From positions 1 to 64,000 of IMG/VR virus record IMGVR_UViG_3300011008_000043: a DNA stretch of 64,000 nucleotides. One strand, written 5' to 3'. This document shows, piece by piece, positions 3,001-63,368 of this stretch (the stretch's first letter is position 1; each line of letters opens with the position of its first letter). The notes beneath the pieces were generated by a model that worked only from the letters and a program-made list of their open reading frames with translations, was not told the origin of the DNA and did not search any database. Origin of the DNA: a virus. Lineage: Duplodnaviria; Caudoviricetes. The position numbers and the translations under genes were made by a program.

Positions 3001-4714
3001 CAAGGAAGATCGTGAAAACATCCCAGAGTTGGTTGAGAAGCGCAATACAGCGCGGGCAGCACAGGAAGCAGAAGACGCCGGATACCGGGCTGCTGTGTCT
3101 GATAAACAGTTCCTTAACGATCTTGAAAATAAGCGTCAGTCAGCACTTTACACTTATCTCAATTCGGAACAAACCGAAGCGGATTATGATAAATTGATGG
3201 CTGTCGGTTCGGAGATCAAAGAGGCTGGAAAGAACTATCAGTGGTCTGATCTTTTGGGCGCGCCGATGAATTTCGAAGCAATCCAACCGGAAGAATTGTT
3301 CGGGAAAACGACTGGCGGATGGTTCGGCACAGGGCTCTTCGGGCACTGGGAAGCCGACAAAACTCTGAACCCGTTCGGCAGTGCAATGGACGATCTGAAT
3401 CAACAGACAGACAGATGGATTGATAGAAGCGAGGAATACGGCGCTCAGGCCAACACATACGACGAAAGCCTGAACCGCCATTACCAGAACGAAGTCCGGG
3501 CGCAAGAGTTGAACGCATTCTCTGAACTCGGCTTTGAATCTGGGTTGACAACATCAACGGTTCAGGAAATGGCAAATAATTTCGCGAATCTTGATACGGC
3601 AGCGCAGGCCGCTTTCGTGAACGCTCTGGCTGGAATCCAGCAGCTTAACACGGAATCGGACTACATTGCGGAAGACCAGAAGGTGAACGTAAAGCAGGCA
3701 TACGAGACAGCGCAGAAGTCCATTACAGACAGCGGCTCGAAAGCCGTGCTTAACGACATCACAACGGAGCTAACGCATCTGAAAGCGACATACGATCAGT
3801 TTGGGACAGACGCACAAGGGAAGACGCTTATTCCAGAGGCACACGCGGAGACAGCAAAAGCAGACCTCGACGCGATAAACGCCGCACTGGAAAGCCTGAA
3901 CCTTGACAAAATATCCGACCTGAGCGAGATCGGAAGCGCGATTGAGCAGATCAACGCGCTCGACCCGTCCGTGATTTCCGATATGGACGCGACAGGGGTA
4001 GAAGCCGTTGCAGCCGCGTTGGAAGGCATTGGAGGCAGCGCAGAAGAAACCATATCGAAGCTGGAAGAAACGAAAGCAGCAGCGGAAGCCCTCAGACAGA
4101 CCTATGAAATGATTATCGAGGATAACGGTCAGGAAGCGGCGGCAAACTGTGCTGCCGCTGGAGCAGCAGCAGAAGGCGCAGCAGGAACCTACTACATCGA
4201 CATCATTACCAGATACTCATCACAAGGAGCGAAGGGCTCTGGTTATCCACAATTACCGCAAATCCCTATCCCCGGTGAAGCAAAGGGCGGTATTTTCGAT
4301 GGAGCTTTCCTCTCGTGGGTAGCAGAGGACGGCCCGGAGGCGATCATCCCGCTCGGCAGCGACAAGCGCGACCGTGGCCTCGATCTATGGCTGAAAGCCG
4401 GACAGATGATGGGCGTAGCAGAGTTCGCCAACGGCGGCATCATGGCCCCGTACACGGGACTGTTTGAAGATGCTCCTGACGATTTCTGGGACGACGACTC
4501 TCCGCGAGAGCTTCCACAGGCAAGCCCGAACAAGAGCAGCAGCGGAAACACGTTCGAGATCATTGTCGAAGCGCATCCGACGTTCGAGATTGAGAACACC
4601 GGCGACGGCGAAGACATACTCGAAAAGCTCAGGTATCACCAGAAAGAGCTGGCTGAAATGTTCGGCGGCGCAATCGCTGACCAGATGGCAGACATCGTAG
4701 CAAACATGGTATAA
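26..4714 (+). CDS. Tail tape measure protein (TP901-family core), 5' end probably outside the window
   Basis: 1562-aa ORF. Typical TMP core (ALSGATNEEFVKLTETAENLGATTKFTATEASEGMQYLAMAGW...), long helical Ala-rich body, C-terminal 'AKGGIF...AEDGPEAIIPL'. The frame has no stop upstream to base 2. Confidence 0.93.
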   Translation: MSMARLQDAQRSIVVVTFIFAGILTTSLKNLTAKAWRVAVRMTDFVTAPFRKLVNMIRSPIMMTLGVTGITMGASSFVTTFKDFTAGMSNVKALSGATNEEFVKLTETAENLGATTKFTATEASEGMQYLAMAGWKTNDIIAAMPGLLDLAAAGGTSLGTAADIVSDVMTAMGMSATEASRAADIFARTATGSNTTIENLGESLKYAAPAAHAFGLSLSEAATITGMMANAGVKGSMAGTALRSSLLGMASPSKSASEAMSKLNLSFADSTGKMKDMRTIIKDLSTAFSGLTEQEKLTYAEDLFGTRGSSAWLAVIEQGADEYERLFKAIDDSNGAAKDMANTQLDNLTGDITLLNSALDGMKISLMKELNPYLRSAVQWVTDKIPMITEKATELVTKIVEKAKDIKNAISDVFNSSEFQNAEGFAGKFFVAWDKLIAEPFTNWWEGGGKQTILDAVAKLGKGLGDLYHGIISGVFAALKGEEVDFDGMNLTGIAKAGAEAAKAFIDSFKEAFDLGGLVNDMPGMLKAGLFGYGAIKVGTGTLSIARTVRDLRLAFGTVAPAAAEAGGAVANVGAQAAAGAAGAGKFATMLGTIGKGLAAIPAWGWVAAAAIAAVAIGVAAYNKAQREHEQALLDTGKAAQQYEEQYVETAQNIERAMATMDEIKKIDLLIEENKGGNAETIARVKEELESVLDKKVLIEAQFARGDITKEEYDALMAQIVDKTVQIKAELIKEGYNEATAQQIIDQYNGIAEGQKTITLILAAKTDLTPDQIQEYVTRLSELMETKTEKELYIKGSGMTANEIKALKEDYDAIKTRTAELEIQINKGQGTMSDDEWNSLVTEYNSLVQQSGEIEIMLKGSEANAEEIKQAQDEVAKLKGEAEGILLKLGYDEGSDLTQSDLNEIAGTLAEIGDKTFAANVALHNTGMSKKEMQALIDKQNELYRTMVETSGGVYTKRDVETGRITQEDFDYWMKDQAAKAAIELASFNAQIKEDRENIPELVEKRNTARAAQEAEDAGYRAAVSDKQFLNDLENKRQSALYTYLNSEQTEADYDKLMAVGSEIKEAGKNYQWSDLLGAPMNFEAIQPEELFGKTTGGWFGTGLFGHWEADKTLNPFGSAMDDLNQQTDRWIDRSEEYGAQANTYDESLNRHYQNEVRAQELNAFSELGFESGLTTSTVQEMANNFANLDTAAQAAFVNALAGIQQLNTESDYIAEDQKVNVKQAYETAQKSITDSGSKAVLNDITTELTHLKATYDQFGTDAQGKTLIPEAHAETAKADLDAINAALESLNLDKISDLSEIGSAIEQINALDPSVISDMDATGVEAVAAALEGIGGSAEETISKLEETKAAAEALRQTYEMIIEDNGQEAAANCAAAGAAAEGAAGTYYIDIITRYSSQGAKGSGYPQLPQIPIPGEAKGGIFDGAFLSWVAEDGPEAIIPLGSDKRDRGLDLWLKAGQMMGVAEFANGGIMAPYTGLFEDAPDDFWDDDSPRELPQASPNKSSSGNTFEIIVEAHPTFEIENTGDGEDILEKLRYHQKELAEMFGGAIADQMADIVANMV

Positions 4715-7611: not shown

Positions 7612-8772
7612 ATGGCAATAGAAGCATCGAGCTACACGCCCCCGGAAATCCTCGACGATATGGACATAGACGAAATCCATAGCCGGATGCTGTCCGAGCT
7701 GCCGCAGAACCTCGATCAGACGGAAGGCGGCTTCATATGGGATATGACAAGGCCCAGTGCAATGGAGAAGTCCTATACGATGTCGGCGTTGAACGCGGTC
7801 GTGCAGATGATCTTCCCGGAATGGGCAGAAGGCATTATTCTGGATTACCACGCGAAGCGGAATGGCATCGCCAGAAAAGAAGCATCAAAGGCAACGGGAA
7901 CCGTCCACATCGTGGGGACAGGAAACGTCCTGATACCGCTTGGCTATGTGTTCAGTACACCGGGAACCACACTGACGACTGCGGTCACATTCGAGGCGAC
8001 GGAAGCCGTCACGCTGGAATACGACGAAGACGAAGGTGCCTATATCGCGGACGTGCCGGTCATCTGTCAGGAAGCAGGACTGATCGGGAACGTTCCAGCC
8101 TACGGAATTTCGGTGATGGCAGTGCCGCTCTCCGGCATCACGGAGCTGTACAACGAAAACAGCCTGACGGACGGAACGGATGAAGAGAGCGACGATGAAC
8201 TCCGGGAACGCGTCATGGAGTTCGACAGAAACCAGAACGTCAGCTACATCGGGAACGATTACGACTATAAACGCTGGGCCATGGAGATTGACGGCGTAGG
8301 CAGCGCGAGCGCCATCCGGGAATGGCAAGGCCACGGAACCGGAACTGTCAAGGTCATCATATTGAGTCAGGCAGGCGGGCAGGCTTCCAGCGCACTGATT
8401 CAGGCGGTGTACGATCATATCATGGGAACGGACGAAGAGCCGAACACAAGGCTCGCGCCCATCGGAGCGATTCTCACGGTTACGACGGGCCAGCCCATGA
8501 CGATCAATCTTACGGCGAACGTAGAGCTGGAAGAGGATTACACCGTTGAGACAGTGGAGGCCGGATTCAAGACGCTGCTGACAGAGTATTTCGACACAGC
8601 GAAGGAAGAAGGCGAAGTCAAGTACAGCCGGATTGCCAGATGCCTGAGTGAAACCCCCGGCGTAGCGGACTTCCGGCAACTGCTGGTGAACGGAACGCGA
8701 GACAATCTGACGGTCGGAGTAGAAGACCTGCCGGTCGTTACATCGCTCACACTGACTGAAATGGAGGTGTAA
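7612..8772 (+). CDS. Baseplate J-like protein (XkdT)
   Basis: 'EGGFIWDMTRP', 'DGTDEESDDELRER', 'GNDYDYKRWAMEIDGVG...GTGTVKV' baseplate-J motifs. Confidence 0.9.
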   Translation: MAIEASSYTPPEILDDMDIDEIHSRMLSELPQNLDQTEGGFIWDMTRPSAMEKSYTMSALNAVVQMIFPEWAEGIILDYHAKRNGIARKEASKATGTVHIVGTGNVLIPLGYVFSTPGTTLTTAVTFEATEAVTLEYDEDEGAYIADVPVICQEAGLIGNVPAYGISVMAVPLSGITELYNENSLTDGTDEESDDELRERVMEFDRNQNVSYIGNDYDYKRWAMEIDGVGSASAIREWQGHGTGTVKVIILSQAGGQASSALIQAVYDHIMGTDEEPNTRLAPIGAILTVTTGQPMTINLTANVELEEDYTVETVEAGFKTLLTEYFDTAKEEGEVKYSRIARCLSETPGVADFRQLLVNGTRDNLTVGVEDLPVVTSLTLTEMEV

Positions 8773-8775
8773 CCG

Positions 8776-9819
8776 ATGGCGAACAGCGACGGACAGACCT
8801 ACAAAGAAATGATCGTCCAAAGCACAGCCGCGAAACGCATGATCGAAATGGCCTCCCCTATTTACGAGGACAGTTACGTCGGAAGCTGGATATTCGAAAT
8901 TCTTGGGCGGTCATGGGATGAAGTCTGGGAAATCATAGACGATATGCCGAACCAGCTTTTCCCGCATATGGTGACATGGCTGATTGACCTGTGGGAGCGG
9001 AGATACGGCATCACGCCGAACATTGGAGATGATCTGGATACCCGGCGACGGCGGCTGCTGGAGGCAGAAGCACAACCACAGCCGTTTACTCCGTGGGCGT
9101 TAGACCAGTACGTGTACGCTCAATGCGGACGGCACGTAGTCGTAGATGAGCATATCGCCCCGTACACGTTCGGCGTTTACATCGTGGACAATGTAGACGC
9201 GCTTCCGCTGGACTATTCCAAAGTCCGCAGGCATATCATTAAGCACAAGCACAGCCATATGAGCTTCGAGCTGTTCTCGGAGAGCGACGAAAAGATCACG
9301 ATCAAGAGCGAAACCATGTACTGGAAATTCCGGTACAGGCAGGCGGGTACAGAGCCGTACCGGAACGTTCTGGTCGGAGTAGAGCGGAGCGAGATCGAAA
9401 TCCAGACGGAAGGCGAAGCTCACAAGATCGAATACGTTATGGCTGGTGTTGAAAAAACCGGTACGAAACCAAGAACGAATACGCTCGTTGCTATTGAACG
9501 AAGCGAAATCAACGTCGAGACGGCTGGAACCGGATACAAGCATCCATACCAGATGACGGGAACTGAAAAGACCGGCACAAAGCCAAAGACAAATACGATT
9601 GTTGCTATCGAAAGAAGCAAACTCACTGCTGAGACAGACAGCACTGGATACAGGTATTCGTACCCGATGGCAGGAACCGAAAACGCTGGTGTTCTCCCGG
9701 AAGTGAATATCAGCACTGGAATTAAGGGCAAAGAGGCTCAGATTTCGAGCAGCGGAAAAGCATATTGGATACGTTACCCCCCTTGCGGCACGATGAAAGC
9801 CGGTGGGGAAATTTTGTAG
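8776..9819 (+). CDS. XkdU/YmfQ-like (DUF2313) baseplate protein with C-terminal ~38-aa tandem repeats
   Basis: 'LIDLWERRYGITP...LDTRRRRL' motif followed by repeated 'xAGTEKTGTKPxTNTxVAIERS...Y' units. Confidence 0.7.
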   Translation: MANSDGQTYKEMIVQSTAAKRMIEMASPIYEDSYVGSWIFEILGRSWDEVWEIIDDMPNQLFPHMVTWLIDLWERRYGITPNIGDDLDTRRRRLLEAEAQPQPFTPWALDQYVYAQCGRHVVVDEHIAPYTFGVYIVDNVDALPLDYSKVRRHIIKHKHSHMSFELFSESDEKITIKSETMYWKFRYRQAGTEPYRNVLVGVERSEIEIQTEGEAHKIEYVMAGVEKTGTKPRTNTLVAIERSEINVETAGTGYKHPYQMTGTEKTGTKPKTNTIVAIERSKLTAETDSTGYRYSYPMAGTENAGVLPEVNISTGIKGKEAQISSSGKAYWIRYPPCGTMKAGGEIL

Positions 9820-10682: not shown

Positions 10683-11001
10683 GATGATTATCGTTGAGAA
10701 AAACGTTGGAGACAAAATCCCCTATGATGTCAACGGCAAGAAAGTCGTTTTTGACGACGACCTGAGCATCAACCTCACGAAGCGCGAGCAGGATTGGCCC
10801 GTGCATATTGACATCTGCTACGATTCGGACAAGGAGCTGGTCATCGGAACTTCTGCCGGTCGTGCGTATGTGGCAGAGATCGACATTCCGGCGAGACAGT
10901 ATACCTATCCGGAAACGGAAGAAGGCGAAGAGCCGCAGCCGCCCGTCCCTGTCCCGCTGGACATGGATACCGTCACCCTGAGCCTTTGGGCCATTGATTA
11001 A
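10675..11001 (+). CDS. Hypothetical tail-associated protein
   Basis: ORF coupled to both neighbours in the tail operon, immediately upstream of the DGR target. Confidence 0.5.
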   Translation: MIKMIIVEKNVGDKIPYDVNGKKVVFDDDLSINLTKREQDWPVHIDICYDSDKELVIGTSAGRAYVAEIDIPARQYTYPETEEGEEPQPPVPVPLDMDTVTLSLWAID

Positions 11002-11020
11002 GAAACAGGAGGAAAACAAA

Positions 11021-12100
11021 ATGCCGAATTTTGATCTGGCGAATCTGGCCTTGCAGGCCGTTTGCCCTAACAACGTACTGCTGTACGACGACAAGAATCT
11101 TCCCAGCGCCATGGTGAAGATTCCGAAAATGACCTATGCGCAGCTCGGTCTGGGAGACAGCTCCGCGACGCACCCGGCATTCATTGTGAACGGGCAGGAA
11201 GTCAGCGCGATCTATATCTCCAAGTACCAGAATGTGGTCATGAACGGACGCGCCTATTCCCTCCCGGGAGAAGACCCGCGAGCGACCATCACCGGCGACG
11301 CGGCTCTGGCAGCGTGTACCGCGAAGGGTGCTGGCTGGCATCTGATGACCCGCGCCGAGTGGGCGTTGCTGGCCCTGTGGTGCAAGCAGAACGGCACTCA
11401 GCCGACGGGAAACAATAACTACGGCAAAGATACCAGCGAGACGCTGTACAAAGCCATCCCGTCCATGGACAGGGACAGCAGCAACAGGATTCAGAGAGTT
11501 GCCACCGGAACCGGCCCGCTGGAATGGAGCCACGACGGAACCCCGGCTGGAATCTGGGATTTGAATGGCAACGTCTGGGAGTGGGTCGGAGGCATCCGCA
11601 CTGTGTACGGAGAGCTTCAGATTCTGGCGAACAACAATGCTGCCGACAGCGACAATTCGCAGGCCGCGACTTCCGCTCAGTGGATGGCGATCAACGCGGC
11701 GACCGGCGAGCTGATGACCCCGGACGGCAGCGGCACGACTTCTGGCTCCGTCAAGATCGACTGGGTATCCAGCCATGCCCGGTATGTTTCGACCATCACC
11801 ACGCAGGAAGCGACAGGACGCTCCTGCACGTTTGAGAGCGTGGATTGCGACAGCACCATTGGCGACGATACAAAGCTGCTGCTGCAGGCCCTCGCTCTTC
11901 TGAAGTACGACGACACCAGCGGCGCGTACAACGGTGACTATTTCTACTTCAACAACGGCGAAGCCGAGCGGGGCTTCCGCTGTGGTGGCGTCTGGGACGG
12001 TGGGGCGACTGCGGGCGTCTTCGACGTCAACGGCGGCAGCTCTTTCCGGTCGGCCTCGCTCACGATCATCGGGTTCCGCTCCGCTTTTGTTGAGCTGTAA
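11021..12100 (+). CDS. DGR target: Mtd-like C-type-lectin-fold (FGE-sulfatase-like) tail adhesin/receptor-binding protein
   Basis: RBS GGAGG then ATG at 11021. 'WHLMTRAEW', 'GIWDLNGNVWEW' and C-terminal 'GG.W..G..AGVF......R....IGFRSA' CLec motifs. The 3' end is the VR. Confidence 0.93.
   Translation: MPNFDLANLALQAVCPNNVLLYDDKNLPSAMVKIPKMTYAQLGLGDSSATHPAFIVNGQEVSAIYISKYQNVVMNGRAYSLPGEDPRATITGDAALAACTAKGAGWHLMTRAEWALLALWCKQNGTQPTGNNNYGKDTSETLYKAIPSMDRDSSNRIQRVATGTGPLEWSHDGTPAGIWDLNGNVWEWVGGIRTVYGELQILANNNAADSDNSQAATSAQWMAINAATGELMTPDGSGTTSGSVKIDWVSSHARYVSTITTQEATGRSCTFESVDCDSTIGDDTKLLLQALALLKYDDTSGAYNGDYFYFNNGEAERGFRCGGVWDGGATAGVFDVNGGSSFRSASLTIIGFRSAFVEL
11967..12087 (+). repeat. DGR variable repeat (VR), 121 nt
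   Basis: Aligns without gaps to 12552-12606 + 12806-12871, with 16 mismatches, every one opposite a TR adenine. Confidence 0.96.
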
Positions 12101-12105
12101 GCTGA

Positions 12106-12144
12106 CCCACCGTAAGCTGTGGGGCATCGCGATAGCGATGGCCC
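12106..12144 (+). promoter_or_regulatory. GC-rich hairpin(s) downstream of VR, DGR target-recognition element
   Basis: CATCGC-GATA-GCGATG stem-loop (12125-12140, extendable by GGG/CCC) plus CCCAC...GTGGG. The position matches the hairpin/cruciform needed for homing in characterised DGRs. Confidence 0.7.
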
Positions 12145-12184
12145 GATAAACCAAAAGAAATTCGCAGAAGGGGACTGAGCAGGC

Positions 12185-12553
12185 ATGGCGGTAGAAGAGT
12201 TCAAAACACTGACGAAAGTCAAGGATATGATGATCTATGCGTACCCGGTGCTTGCTCAGTTCCCGAAAGCGGAGAAGTTTTCGCTGGCGCAGGACATCCG
12301 GCACAGCATGGATCAACTGCTGGAACTCACGATTACGGAAGACAAGAAATATTACAAGAAAACCACGCTCGAAAGCATGGACGTAGAGCTGGCGAAACTG
12401 AAGACGTATGTCAGGCTCGGCATGGAGCTGAATTTTATTCCATTCCACAAATACGAGGTATGGGAAAGACACCTGACAGAAATAGGCAAGATGATCGGCG
12501 GCTTGATGAAATCCGTCAACAGCAAGCCGAAGAACATAGGGAACGAATCGTAG
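12185..12553 (+). CDS. avd: DGR accessory variability determinant (Avd-like four-helix bundle)
   Basis: 122 aa, 'FPKAEKFSLAQDIR...IGKMIGG' motifs, located between target gene and TR; its stop overlaps the TR start. Confidence 0.92.
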   Translation: MAVEEFKTLTKVKDMMIYAYPVLAQFPKAEKFSLAQDIRHSMDQLLELTITEDKKYYKKTTLESMDVELAKLKTYVRLGMELNFIPFHKYEVWERHLTEIGKMIGGLMKSVNSKPKNIGNES

Positions 12554-12871
12554 CGGGGCTTCAACTGTGGTGGCAACTGGAACAATGGGGCGAATGCGGG
12601 CGTCTTCGAATGGAGCGGTCAGACGGGAAACCACTGACCGGATGCTGGCTAATTCGGCGAATATCCCATAGGGACAACGCCGAGCTAAACCGGGAAACCG
12701 GAAATGTGTAGAGACTATATACCAGCGGCCTAAACTCATGGGGAGCAAGGTCAAGAAATAGTCCAGACCGCAACCGAAAGGGCTATGGCAACATAGTGCG
12801 GCAGGCGACGTCAACGGCAACAACTCTTTCCGGTCGAACTCGAACACGAACATCGGGTTCCGCTCCGCTTT
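12552..12871 (+). ncRNA. DGR template repeat (TR), split into exon 1 (12552-12606) and exon 2 (12806-12871) by an intron
   Basis: The spliced TR has 11 AAC/AAT codons in the VR reading frame and 26 adenines. Its 3' end diverges from VR after CCGCTTT (IMH versus IMH*). Confidence 0.95.
12607..12805 (+). ncRNA. Group I intron (compact, IC3/Azoarcus-like, no homing endonuclease), 199 nt
   Basis: 5' exon ends in U, which makes a U.G pair in P1 (CUUC-GAAU-GGAG). Intron ends in G. P2 GGUCAG/CUGACC with GAAA cap. P3 UGCUGG/CCAGCG. P4 AAUUCGGCGAA/AACGCCGAGC. P5 UCCC/GGGA. P6a CCGG-GAAA-CCGG. P7 GUAGAGACUA/AAGAAAUAGUCC. P9 region CCGCA/UGCGG enclosing CC-GAAA-GG and CUAUG-GCAA-CAUAG. Confidence 0.93.
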
Positions 12872-13025
12872 ACCCCGAACGCCAGATGCCGCAGGCTCAC
12901 GGGCCTGCTCCCAGAGCGATGGGTGAGTAAAGGGATTCGAATCCTTGGTCAACCACGGGCCAGAAAAAGAACGGCTGCGAAATCCGCGAAAGCTGATAAG
13001 CGCAGCTCTTCCATGGAGACTGAAT
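12872..13025 (+). promoter_or_regulatory. DGR spacer (Sp-like) between TR and RT with hairpins
   Basis: GCAGGC-TCACGG-GCCTGC hairpin and GGATTCGAATCC palindrome. Position is equivalent to the structured spacer RNA used for cDNA priming in the BPP-1 DGR. Confidence 0.55.
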
Positions 13026-14150
13026 ATGGAGAAATACCAACATGTTTTTGAAAAATTCGTGGAGTTTCGGAGACAGTACGACGGATACCGGCTGGCTCGC
13101 AGATGCAAGCGATTCCGGCCTGAGGTGCTATCCTATTCAGTCAAATTGGAAGACAACATTTTCGACATGATAGACCGGCTGAAAGACCGGACATATCACA
13201 TAGAAGGCGCACACGAATTTTACGAATACTTCCCAAAGAAACGCATCATAACAGCATGGCCTTTTCCGTACCGCGTAGTCAACTGCGCGGCCTATTTGAC
13301 GTTATGGCCCATATACGAGAAGAGTTTTTATGAACACAGCTATGGCAGCATCCCCGGCAAAGGAAGCATCAGAGCCGTACAGCAGGTGCAATACTGGCAG
13401 CGTCAGGCGCGAGCGACCGGAAAGAACACGGTCGCCGGAAAAGCGGATGTAGCGAAGTTCTTTTTCAGGGTTCCGCACGAGGTACAGCTCGACAGGCTGA
13501 TGCGTCCGCTAGATGACCCGAACATGGAATGGTTCTTGCGAACGTCCATCAATGGAGACGGCAGAGCGACAGGACTGCCACTGGAATTTTCCGACGTGGA
13601 AGACGCGGAGAGGATTTTCGGAATCGGGATGCCGGTAGGAAGCCTGATATCACAGATGACGGCGAACGTTGTCTTGACACCACTCGACCATTATATGAAA
13701 CGGGTGGTCGGGATACCGAAATATTGCCGGTACATGGACGATATGTACATACAGGGAGAGAGCAAACAGCAGGTCTGGGATGCCCTCGGAATGATGGACG
13801 GATTTCTGCGAAGGGAGCTGGGCCTGCAACTGAATCAGAAGACGGCGGTCATGCCATACGACAGCGGGATAGAGTTCGTCGGAAGAGTGATAACCCCAGA
13901 CAAGATCACGATCAGAAAAAGCACGACACTGCTGGTCAAAAAGCATCTGAATTACGTCCGGGAGGCATACGACCGCAGAGAAGTCTCGCTGGACTATGCA
14001 GAAAGCGTCATCGTCAGTTACCTCGGATTGCTGAAGCACACGGATTGCGACGCATTAAGGGAAAAGCTCTGCCGGGATTACGTGCTGATACGGCACTCAA
14101 CACCGGAAGAGATTGAACAGGAAAACAAGACCCAATGGATAGGGATTTGA
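13026..14150 (+). CDS. DGR reverse transcriptase
   Basis: 'SYGSIPGKG', 'KADVAKFF', 'GMPVGSLISQ', 'YCRYMDD', 'GLQLNQKT...IEFVG' RT motifs. No maturase/endonuclease extension. Likely ATG at 13026 after GGAGA. Confidence 0.96.
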   Translation: MEKYQHVFEKFVEFRRQYDGYRLARRCKRFRPEVLSYSVKLEDNIFDMIDRLKDRTYHIEGAHEFYEYFPKKRIITAWPFPYRVVNCAAYLTLWPIYEKSFYEHSYGSIPGKGSIRAVQQVQYWQRQARATGKNTVAGKADVAKFFFRVPHEVQLDRLMRPLDDPNMEWFLRTSINGDGRATGLPLEFSDVEDAERIFGIGMPVGSLISQMTANVVLTPLDHYMKRVVGIPKYCRYMDDMYIQGESKQQVWDALGMMDGFLRRELGLQLNQKTAVMPYDSGIEFVGRVITPDKITIRKSTTLLVKKHLNYVREAYDRREVSLDYAESVIVSYLGLLKHTDCDALREKLCRDYVLIRHSTPEEIEQENKTQWIGI

Positions 14151-63081: not shown

Positions 63082-63368
63082 TAAAGACCGTTGACAGCTC
63101 CGCGCTACAAGCGCAGCCGCATGAGTCCTATCACCTCCCTCATGGGTGATGCCCTCGCCGGAAGGAACGCGTTATTGCTGCCGCACCAGTGACACGATTA
63201 TAGAACGGGAGACAGCCTGACCAACTGTCTCCCGTTTGACTGACGGCGCAAAGGGTATCTAACGGAGCGTATCGCCTGTGAGGTTTGAATCCTTGCGTAC
63301 CACGCGGGGGACAAGTAGAACACACGGGCAAAGAAAAAACTATCTTTCAGTAAAAGGGGGAGAAAACA

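Follow-up and report, generated by a model that had tools for sequence, protein, structure and literature searches.

We report that a group I intron of the tRNA-Leu(UAA) lineage appears to have settled in the template repeat (TR) of a clade of diversity-generating retroelements (DGRs), where it would be spliced out and the ligated 121-nt TR RNA copied by the DGR reverse transcriptase (RT); we put the probability of this reading at about 0.8. The intron was recognised in the IMG/VR virus record IMGVR_UViG_3300011008_000043 (Duplodnaviria; Caudoviricetes), a genome of 73,256 bp with direct terminal repeats that is estimated to be complete, and of which the first 64 kb (64,000 nucleotides) form the window analysed here. 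The DGR of the window lies on the plus strand in the standard layout, with the target gene and its variable repeat (VR) followed by the accessory gene avd, the TR and the RT gene (Table 1). The intron is located in the TR between avd and RT, not in a tRNA anticodon loop.

A repeat search in the window found two direct repeats at different offsets, 11959-12024 with 12544-12609 at +585 and 12022-12087 with 12806-12871 at +784. These offsets reproduce exactly the coordinates of a first-pass annotation, which had described the TR as 55 nt matching the VR, 199 unrelated nt and a further 66 matching nt. The VR is uninterrupted and the TR is longer by 199 nt (12607-12805), so that at the DNA level the two are not colinear. 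With 12607-12805 removed, TR and VR align without a gap over 121 nt, and each of the 16 mismatches between them falls at a TR adenine, 8 upstream and 8 downstream of the junction; 16 of the 26 TR adenines are changed in the VR, compared with none of the 95 non-A sites. The insert boundary is ambiguous by 0-3 nt within the window genome (a shared CGA), and as judged from the sequence the only choice that obeys group I rules places the splice sites between U12606 and C12607 and between G12805 and C12806. Joining the exons there restores a TR that is colinear with the VR, in agreement with the junction first proposed, and the surrounding cassette is that of a complete DGR, with a bAvd-type accessory protein, an RVT_1 RT and a target gene in addition to the adenine-only mismatches. 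No second, intact TR was found elsewhere in the 73-kb genome.

The identity of the 199-nt insert as a group I intron is confirmed by covariance-model search, folding and covariation. The Rfam model Intron_gpI (RF00028) matches 12594-12786 over the full model length with 56.3 bits (E 1.3e-11), above the gathering score of 50, and this is the sole such match in the genome. All of the group I core elements that had been claimed for the insert are present, including P2 with its GAAA loop, P3, P4, P6, P7 and the GNRA loops of P9, and they are supported by the covariation described below. The unconstrained minimum free energy (MFE) fold contains all of the helices apart from the P7 pseudoknot, with z = -4.46 versus shuffles. 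The intron contains no open reading frame (ORF), and hence no homing endonuclease gene was found within its 199 nt.

Fifteen related DGR loci, with RT identities of 61-72%, were found in IMG/VR. Both repeats could be found in 13 of them, and 12 of these 13 have an uninterrupted TR; the uninterrupted TRs align to the spliced TR of the window across the junction. The remaining locus, L002, has a split TR (3523-3579 and 3785-3839) with a 205-nt insert that is 78% identical to the window intron. Its RT is 97% identical to that of the intron-free loci L005 and L006, and the TR regions of L002 and L005/L006 are identical apart from 2-3 substitutions and the exact presence or absence of the 205 nt. 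L002 reads ...CTCGTT, intron, CAACGG..., compared with ...CTCGTTCAACGG... in L005/L006, the empty site being the predicted ligated junction. The L002/L005 pair therefore makes the intron boundaries unambiguous, with the exon ending in U and the intron ending in G.

An exact search with a 36-nt intron core gave no match in viral contigs, and a two-block intron pattern found 42 loci in metagenome contigs. In four of these (L065, L057, L036 and L052) the intron lies between avd and a related RT, which brings the total to at least six DGR loci with a TR intron, including the window and L002, all in the order Avd, TR with intron, RT. A comparison of homologous DGRs with and without the intron, as suggested with the first-pass annotation, can thus draw on five further intron-bearing loci and on the intron-free L005 and L006. 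A P9b-based pattern gave two further loci, which were set aside as not DGR-linked because their records hold no related RT. The VR comparison was limited to loci whose contig includes the VR. Continuous VRs with adenine mismatches upstream and downstream of the junction were seen in L002 (6 + 5), L065 (7 + 8) and L057 (6 + 9), and L036 shows the same adenine pattern and a continuous VR, plus a 1-nt indel at its extreme 3' end. Pooled over the window, L002, L065 and L057, 57 of 101 TR adenines differ in the VR versus 0 of 346 non-A sites. Among genomes, the most closely related RTs (57-73% identity) come from Clostridia, Clostridiales, Eubacteriales and Bacillota metagenome-assembled genomes (MAGs), a rumen MAG among them. 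An RT-based scan of bacterial and archaeal genomes gave 18 loci, and the five close relatives among them, in Clostridia and Bacillota MAGs, have no TR intron. The intron-bearing DGR clade is found in gut and rumen phages, with close relatives in Clostridia MAGs.

A covariance model built from the six TR introns retrieves 30 close full-length relatives. RNAalifold cannot draw the P3/P7 pseudoknot and placed a spurious hairpin, and the structure was instead written by hand and tested by pair counts. Across the 30 relatives, paired cells make up 91.9% and both sides are changed in 34 of 55 pairs, with slid controls at 34-42%; for the six TR introns alone the values are 93.6% and 15 of 55 pairs, with slid controls at 28-38%. 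No shuffle matched the observed pair counts. Among the 30 sequences, pairing in P3 and P8 is complete (100%) and accompanied by compensatory changes, and P4 and P7 show almost no variation. Each of the six TR introns has AGG or AAG as its last three bases before the exon, and P1 covaries with the exon, as CUU/GAG in three loci and GUU/GAC in the other three. The compensatory changes among the TR introns indicate that the fold has been under selection during residence in TRs. Selection on the ribozyme inside TRs in turn argues that removal of the intron matters, and therefore that the template matters, since it would otherwise be hard to explain.

The kinship of the intron points to tRNA genes. 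In all 24 of the non-DGR relatives in the 30-sequence alignment, a tRNA 3' half follows the intron. ARAGORN misses intron-containing tRNAs and a brute-force splice scan was noisy, and explicit exon joining was therefore used; of nine relatives treated in this way in silico, seven yielded tRNA-Leu(UAA), the intron lying between U34 and A35, and another yielded tRNA-Leu(CAA). This position is the classic site of the cyanobacterial and plastid trnL intron, and the literature assigns the introns found there to IC3. In a tree of intron cores all six TR introns group together in a single clade (support 0.98) that lies within the phage tRNA-Leu(UAA) introns, and a single capture by a TR is therefore the simplest history. 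The likeness to the Azoarcus tRNA-Ile (IC3) intron, which the first-pass annotation had pointed out, is borne out indirectly, in that the TR introns would be IC3-like by kinship to tRNA-Leu(UAA) introns; these kin are not tRNA-Ile introns. In several of the phage trnL(UAA) relatives (L041, L046, L029 and L063) the ribozyme core is closely preceded by an HNH-like coding sequence, and there are phage tRNA arrays with two or three related introns each (L043 at 469-705, 941-1143 and 1230-1432; L022; L058). Distant family members also occur outside tRNA genes and DGRs, at L018:1192-1385 (-), L019:5372-5568 (-) and L101:487-682 (+); those of L018 and L019 come after an HNH-like coding sequence, and that of L101 lies in a 64-kb viral contig without a related RT.

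An intron has been placed in a TR by design. In 2008, Guo and colleagues reportedly inserted the T4 td group I intron into the TR of the BPP-1 DGR. The td intron belongs to subgroup IA2. An engineered td intron in the TR of the Bordetella phage was spliced and the DGR was still functional (Naorem et al. 2017, PMC5703328), and the BPP-1 experiments therefore show that a DGR tolerates an intron in its TR. In this phage, the priming site of cDNA synthesis is in the spacer that follows the TR, and copying then proceeds 3' to 5' through the TR RNA (PMC5703328). The cDNA and VR products of the BPP-1 system carry precisely ligated exons, which shows an RNA intermediate, and the Avd-TR-spacer-RT layout is common to the two arrangements. 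They differ in that td was a laboratory tag taken from an unrelated phage gene, whereas the window intron occurs naturally and belongs to the tRNA-Leu(UAA) type, and in that the TR intron has been inherited and has diversified within a DGR clade, with its guide adapted to the TR exons.

Compared with tRNA-Leu(UAA) introns, the TR introns are likewise about 200 nt long, with a 3-bp P1 carrying a U-G wobble, a P2 capped by GAAA, a receptor-like motif in P8, no P5abc, GNRA loops in P9 and a terminal G. Unlike them, they reside in a non-coding retroelement template, in the context CUU-C or GUU-C (the hyphen marking the junction) rather than between U34 and A35, and the guide has changed from GAG to GAC in half of the TR loci. 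The DGR itself resembles canonical DGRs of the BPP-1 Mtd type in its YMDD and GxxxSQ RT motifs, its bAvd, a lectin-fold target with a 3' VR, adenine-specific mutagenesis and a structured spacer RNA; it departs from them in a TR that is not colinear with the VR in the DNA, for which repeat detection yields 55 and 66 nt at different offsets. Full-text literature searches turned up the engineered intron tag but no TR with an intron of natural origin, and the intron passages of DGR survey papers do not mention one. What would be new here is a DGR whose template needs RNA splicing, together with a tRNA-type group I intron in a new type of host.

From these comparisons the following pathway can be proposed. 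The avd-TR-RT transcript would include the intron, which the ribozyme would excise at the two splice sites named above by means of its 3-bp P1, with the U-G wobble at the splice site, and its terminal G. The ligated 121-nt TR RNA would then serve as the RT template, with cDNA synthesis beginning in the spacer downstream of the TR and crossing the junction, so that exon 2 would be met first and exon 1 afterwards, and the adenine-mutagenised cDNA would replace the entire VR. We strongly infer that splicing precedes reverse transcription. The template was in all probability the ligated RNA, because the VRs are adenine-mutagenised within their exon-1 portion too and retain nothing of the intron, and copies of unspliced RNA should be lost because 199 nt is not a multiple of three and the conserved adenines of the intron would be scrambled. 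The window intron would probably splice autocatalytically, and the intron-bearing DGRs may be currently active. The earlier claim that the DGR depends on splicing gains comparative support, from five loci with continuous VRs, from adenine mutagenesis on both sides of the junction and from compensatory upkeep of the fold, the precise excision being seen at the DNA level. The further suggestion that hypermutation is regulated through splicing by way of GTP or Mg2+ is speculation; dependence on splicing follows from the arrangement and should not be taken for a demonstrated means of regulation. We favour the view that the intron is a selfish element, tolerated in a safe harbour: the TR is transcribed and non-coding, and splicing restores its function.

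Several observations weigh against this pathway as an active one. The intron is rare in RT-based sampling, being present at 1 of the 13 viral loci and at none of the 5 close genome loci. The one independent assembly of the window cassette, the sole further contig with an identical Avd, carries an identical VR, and no VR variants are on record for the window target, whose protein cluster consists of the same protein with two start sites, or for the L065 target, which is a singleton. The L002-type target does have 14 variants on record (P0003-P0016, at least 86% identical), which differ mainly at AAC-templated VR codons (alignment columns 318-345), but only 1 of the 14 stands beside an intron-bearing TR, and all four of the others that were checked (P0004, P0006, P0011 and P0012) have the short Avd-RT spacing of an intron-free locus; ongoing diversification is therefore documented only for intron-free relatives. 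A second L002-like contig, L027, has the same VR as L002, since one target protein is recorded on both contigs. Two further points concern the ribozyme: its P1 is only 3 bp, so that the intron need not self-splice efficiently once outside a tRNA and could require help from a protein, and the covariation alignments were fitted to the model, which favours structure in the pair counts, the margin still being large.

These observations lend some weight to the alternative that intron-bearing TRs are recently disabled dead ends, in which the adenine-only pattern is left over from activity before the insertion. Such an account would fit the minority status of the intron-bearing loci, the small difference beyond the intron itself between L002 and the intron-free L005/L006, and the distribution of the L002-lineage variants. 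We consider it unlikely, however, since the six TR introns form a single clade, are 9-18% divergent and have kept their helices through 15 compensatory pairs, which is unexpected for junk, with P4, P7 and the terminal G invariant and P1 co-adapted to two exon contexts. In addition, across four lineages the VR never departs from the spliced TR at a non-A site (0 of 346). The intron-free P0004, P0006, P0011 and P0012 bear no information on the activity of a DGR with the intron.

A second alternative accepts removal of the intron and assigns it to something other than unaided self-splicing, either a required protein (a maturase-like chaperone or a tRNA-processing factor) or template switching by the RT on unspliced RNA. 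The short P1 speaks for it, as do the relatives, which normally sit in a tRNA whose anticodon stem aids splicing; the Anabaena trnL intron needs the anticodon stem to splice (Zaug 1993, as cited in PMC3984707). In the TR loci the exon ends pair across the intron, giving a makeshift helix of only 3-6 bp (5-6 bp in five loci, 3-4 bp in L052; GCGUC/GACGU in the window). This pairing lies at 12600-12812 in the window, at 3572-3792 in L002 and at the junctions of L065, L052, L036 and L057, and RNAalifold also draws the exon-exon helix. By analogy the helix recalls the trnL anticodon stem, and it may be either a reason for the insertion site or a coincidence. Exon-exon pairing was ruled out as a discriminating feature, intron-free TRs having identical exon sequences. 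Against assisted removal, the core and the tertiary-contact motifs of small self-splicing tRNA introns are all present (L2 GAAA, the receptor-like P8 and the P9 GNRA loops), a foreign group I intron self-splices from the TR in the Bordetella system, and template switching would not yield exact junctions in five separate loci; we regard this alternative as distinctly unlikely. A third alternative, in which the insert arose in assembly or is a structured but unrelated insertion that resembles a group I intron, is hardly credible, for although the window comes from a metagenome assembly and the Rfam score is only 6 bits over the threshold, an independent ENA assembly (20 kb) agrees with the window at 100% identity along 5,369 bp that span the cassette with its intron, and the insert is therefore no assembly error, homologues occur at the same place in five further loci from other samples, covariation is strong, and relatives spliced in silico restore tRNA-Leu(UAA).

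In the RT tree the intron-bearing loci are scattered among intron-free ones, with L002 grouping with L005, L057 with L010, L036 with L014 and the window with L065, and the intron tree is incongruent with the RT tree. Two exon contexts are found 3-6 nt apart in a TR alignment of 15 loci, GUCUU-C with guide GAG and UCGUU-C with guide GAC, and both split a TT-C (Phe) codon of the TR. Over the module as a whole, L036 and L052 share about 85% identity, but about 20 nt beside the junction and the guide sequence differ, which looks like co-conversion during a DNA-level transfer. The TR introns are pairwise 82-91% identical and their flanks 69-90%, and no pair combines near-identical introns with strongly diverged flanks; apart from the gain or loss between L002 and L005, nothing therefore points to horizontal spread in the very recent past. 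Spread by recombination between co-infecting phages is possible. A more speculative route, which we hold to be doubtful, is that the intron is gained by reverse splicing into TR RNA at an NUU site that matches the guide, followed by copying by the DGR RT and recombination of the cDNA, and is lost when the RT copies spliced RNA back, a step that would come about readily. If true, such mobility at the RNA level would explain the patchy distribution, the two contexts with matching guides and survival without an endonuclease gene, and it would give the reverse-splicing route of group I intron transposition, which has long been proposed, a natural setting for the first time. Direct evidence for that route was described as wanting in a 2014 review of bacterial introns (PMC3984707).

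Table 1. Features of the DGR cassette of the window and of its TR intron.
Feature	Position	Strand	Support or description
DGR target gene, candidate tail/receptor-binding protein with FGE-sulfatase/C-type-lectin-like fold	11021-12100	+	Pfam PF03781, E 1.7e-5
VR, continuous, 3' end of target gene	11967-12087	+	121-nt match to spliced TR
GC-rich hairpin, starting 34 nt past the VR	12121-12144	+	10-nt arms, 90% complementary; 4-nt loop
avd, bAvd-like accessory protein	12185-12553	+	Pfam PF22296 bAvd, E 1.1e-28
TR exon 1, 55 nt, 3' end CUU	12552-12606	+	Repeat match to VR
Group I intron, 199 nt, ORF-less	12607-12805	+	RF00028, MFE fold, covariation
P1	12613-12615 (guide GAG) with exon CUU		3 bp; wobble U12606-G12613 at splice site
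P2	12616-12640		GAAA loop
P3	12644-12648/12722-12726		
P4	12653-12659/12678-12684		
P5	12664-12667/12671-12674		
P6	12690-12693/12698-12701		GAAA loop
P7	12711-12718/12758-12764		GACUAU/AUAGUC; J8/7 AAGAAA
P8	12727-12730/12749-12752		CCUAAAC...CAAGG internal loop resembling a tetraloop receptor
P9	12768-12772/12797-12801		Branched; GAAA and GCAA hairpins
Terminal G	12805		
TR exon 2, 66 nt	12806-12871	+	Repeat match to VR
Structured spacer RNA, TR-RT interval, RT-14-like	12868-13005	+	RF02921, 44.7 bits, E 1.5e-4; below gathering score 48.1
DGR RT, 374 aa	13026-14150	+	Pfam RVT_1, E 7e-19; YMDD; GSLISQ

The cassette is placed between baseplate genes (Baseplate_J, 7612-8772, and a Mu Gp48-like gene, 8776-9819) and the lysis module. 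The target gene thus lies downstream of Baseplate_J and the Mu Gp48-like gene; in the identical locus L075 it is called as a 359-aa gene, and the nearest annotated phage match of the target gene is in Faecalibacterium phage Lagaffe. The hairpin past the VR could serve in target recognition by the DGR or as a terminator for the target gene. A spacer match of similar RF02921 type is present in the relative L016, and by analogy with the Bordetella phage (PMC5703328) the window spacer probably corresponds to the region of the cDNA priming site. The YMDD motif of the RT, which does not vary in the RT alignment, is accompanied by the DGR-type GxxxSQ motif, as G205-S-L-I-S-Q210, which is invariant across nine relatives. 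A 711-aa open frame on the minus strand (10973-13108) spans the target gene, avd, the TR and the intron, and is probably a by-product of composition and no gene. Elsewhere in the window, the Rfam DUF3800-VIII RNA motif (RF03075) matches 63270-63333 (+) with 46.4 bits, above its gathering score of 40.2.

Taken at this strength, the arrangement would make a retroelement that rewrites a receptor-binding gene dependent on a second, unrelated RNA element, with a ribozyme repairing the template before it is copied. It parallels, in nature, the experiment by which the RNA intermediate of DGRs was first proved, and it adds a new class of host for group I introns, namely a non-coding retroelement template rather than a tRNA, rRNA or protein-coding gene. 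Tools that rely on a continuous TR/VR repeat probably truncate or miss split TRs, and DGR surveys may therefore undercount. A TR intron could provide a ready-made, splicing-dependent switch for engineered DGR mutagenesis systems; DGRs are reported to have been set up in E. coli (bioRxiv 10.64898/2026.07.21.739853). An intron within an RNA that is dedicated to a neighbouring RT is also the best natural place known to us for testing the spread or loss of group I introns through reverse splicing and reverse transcription.

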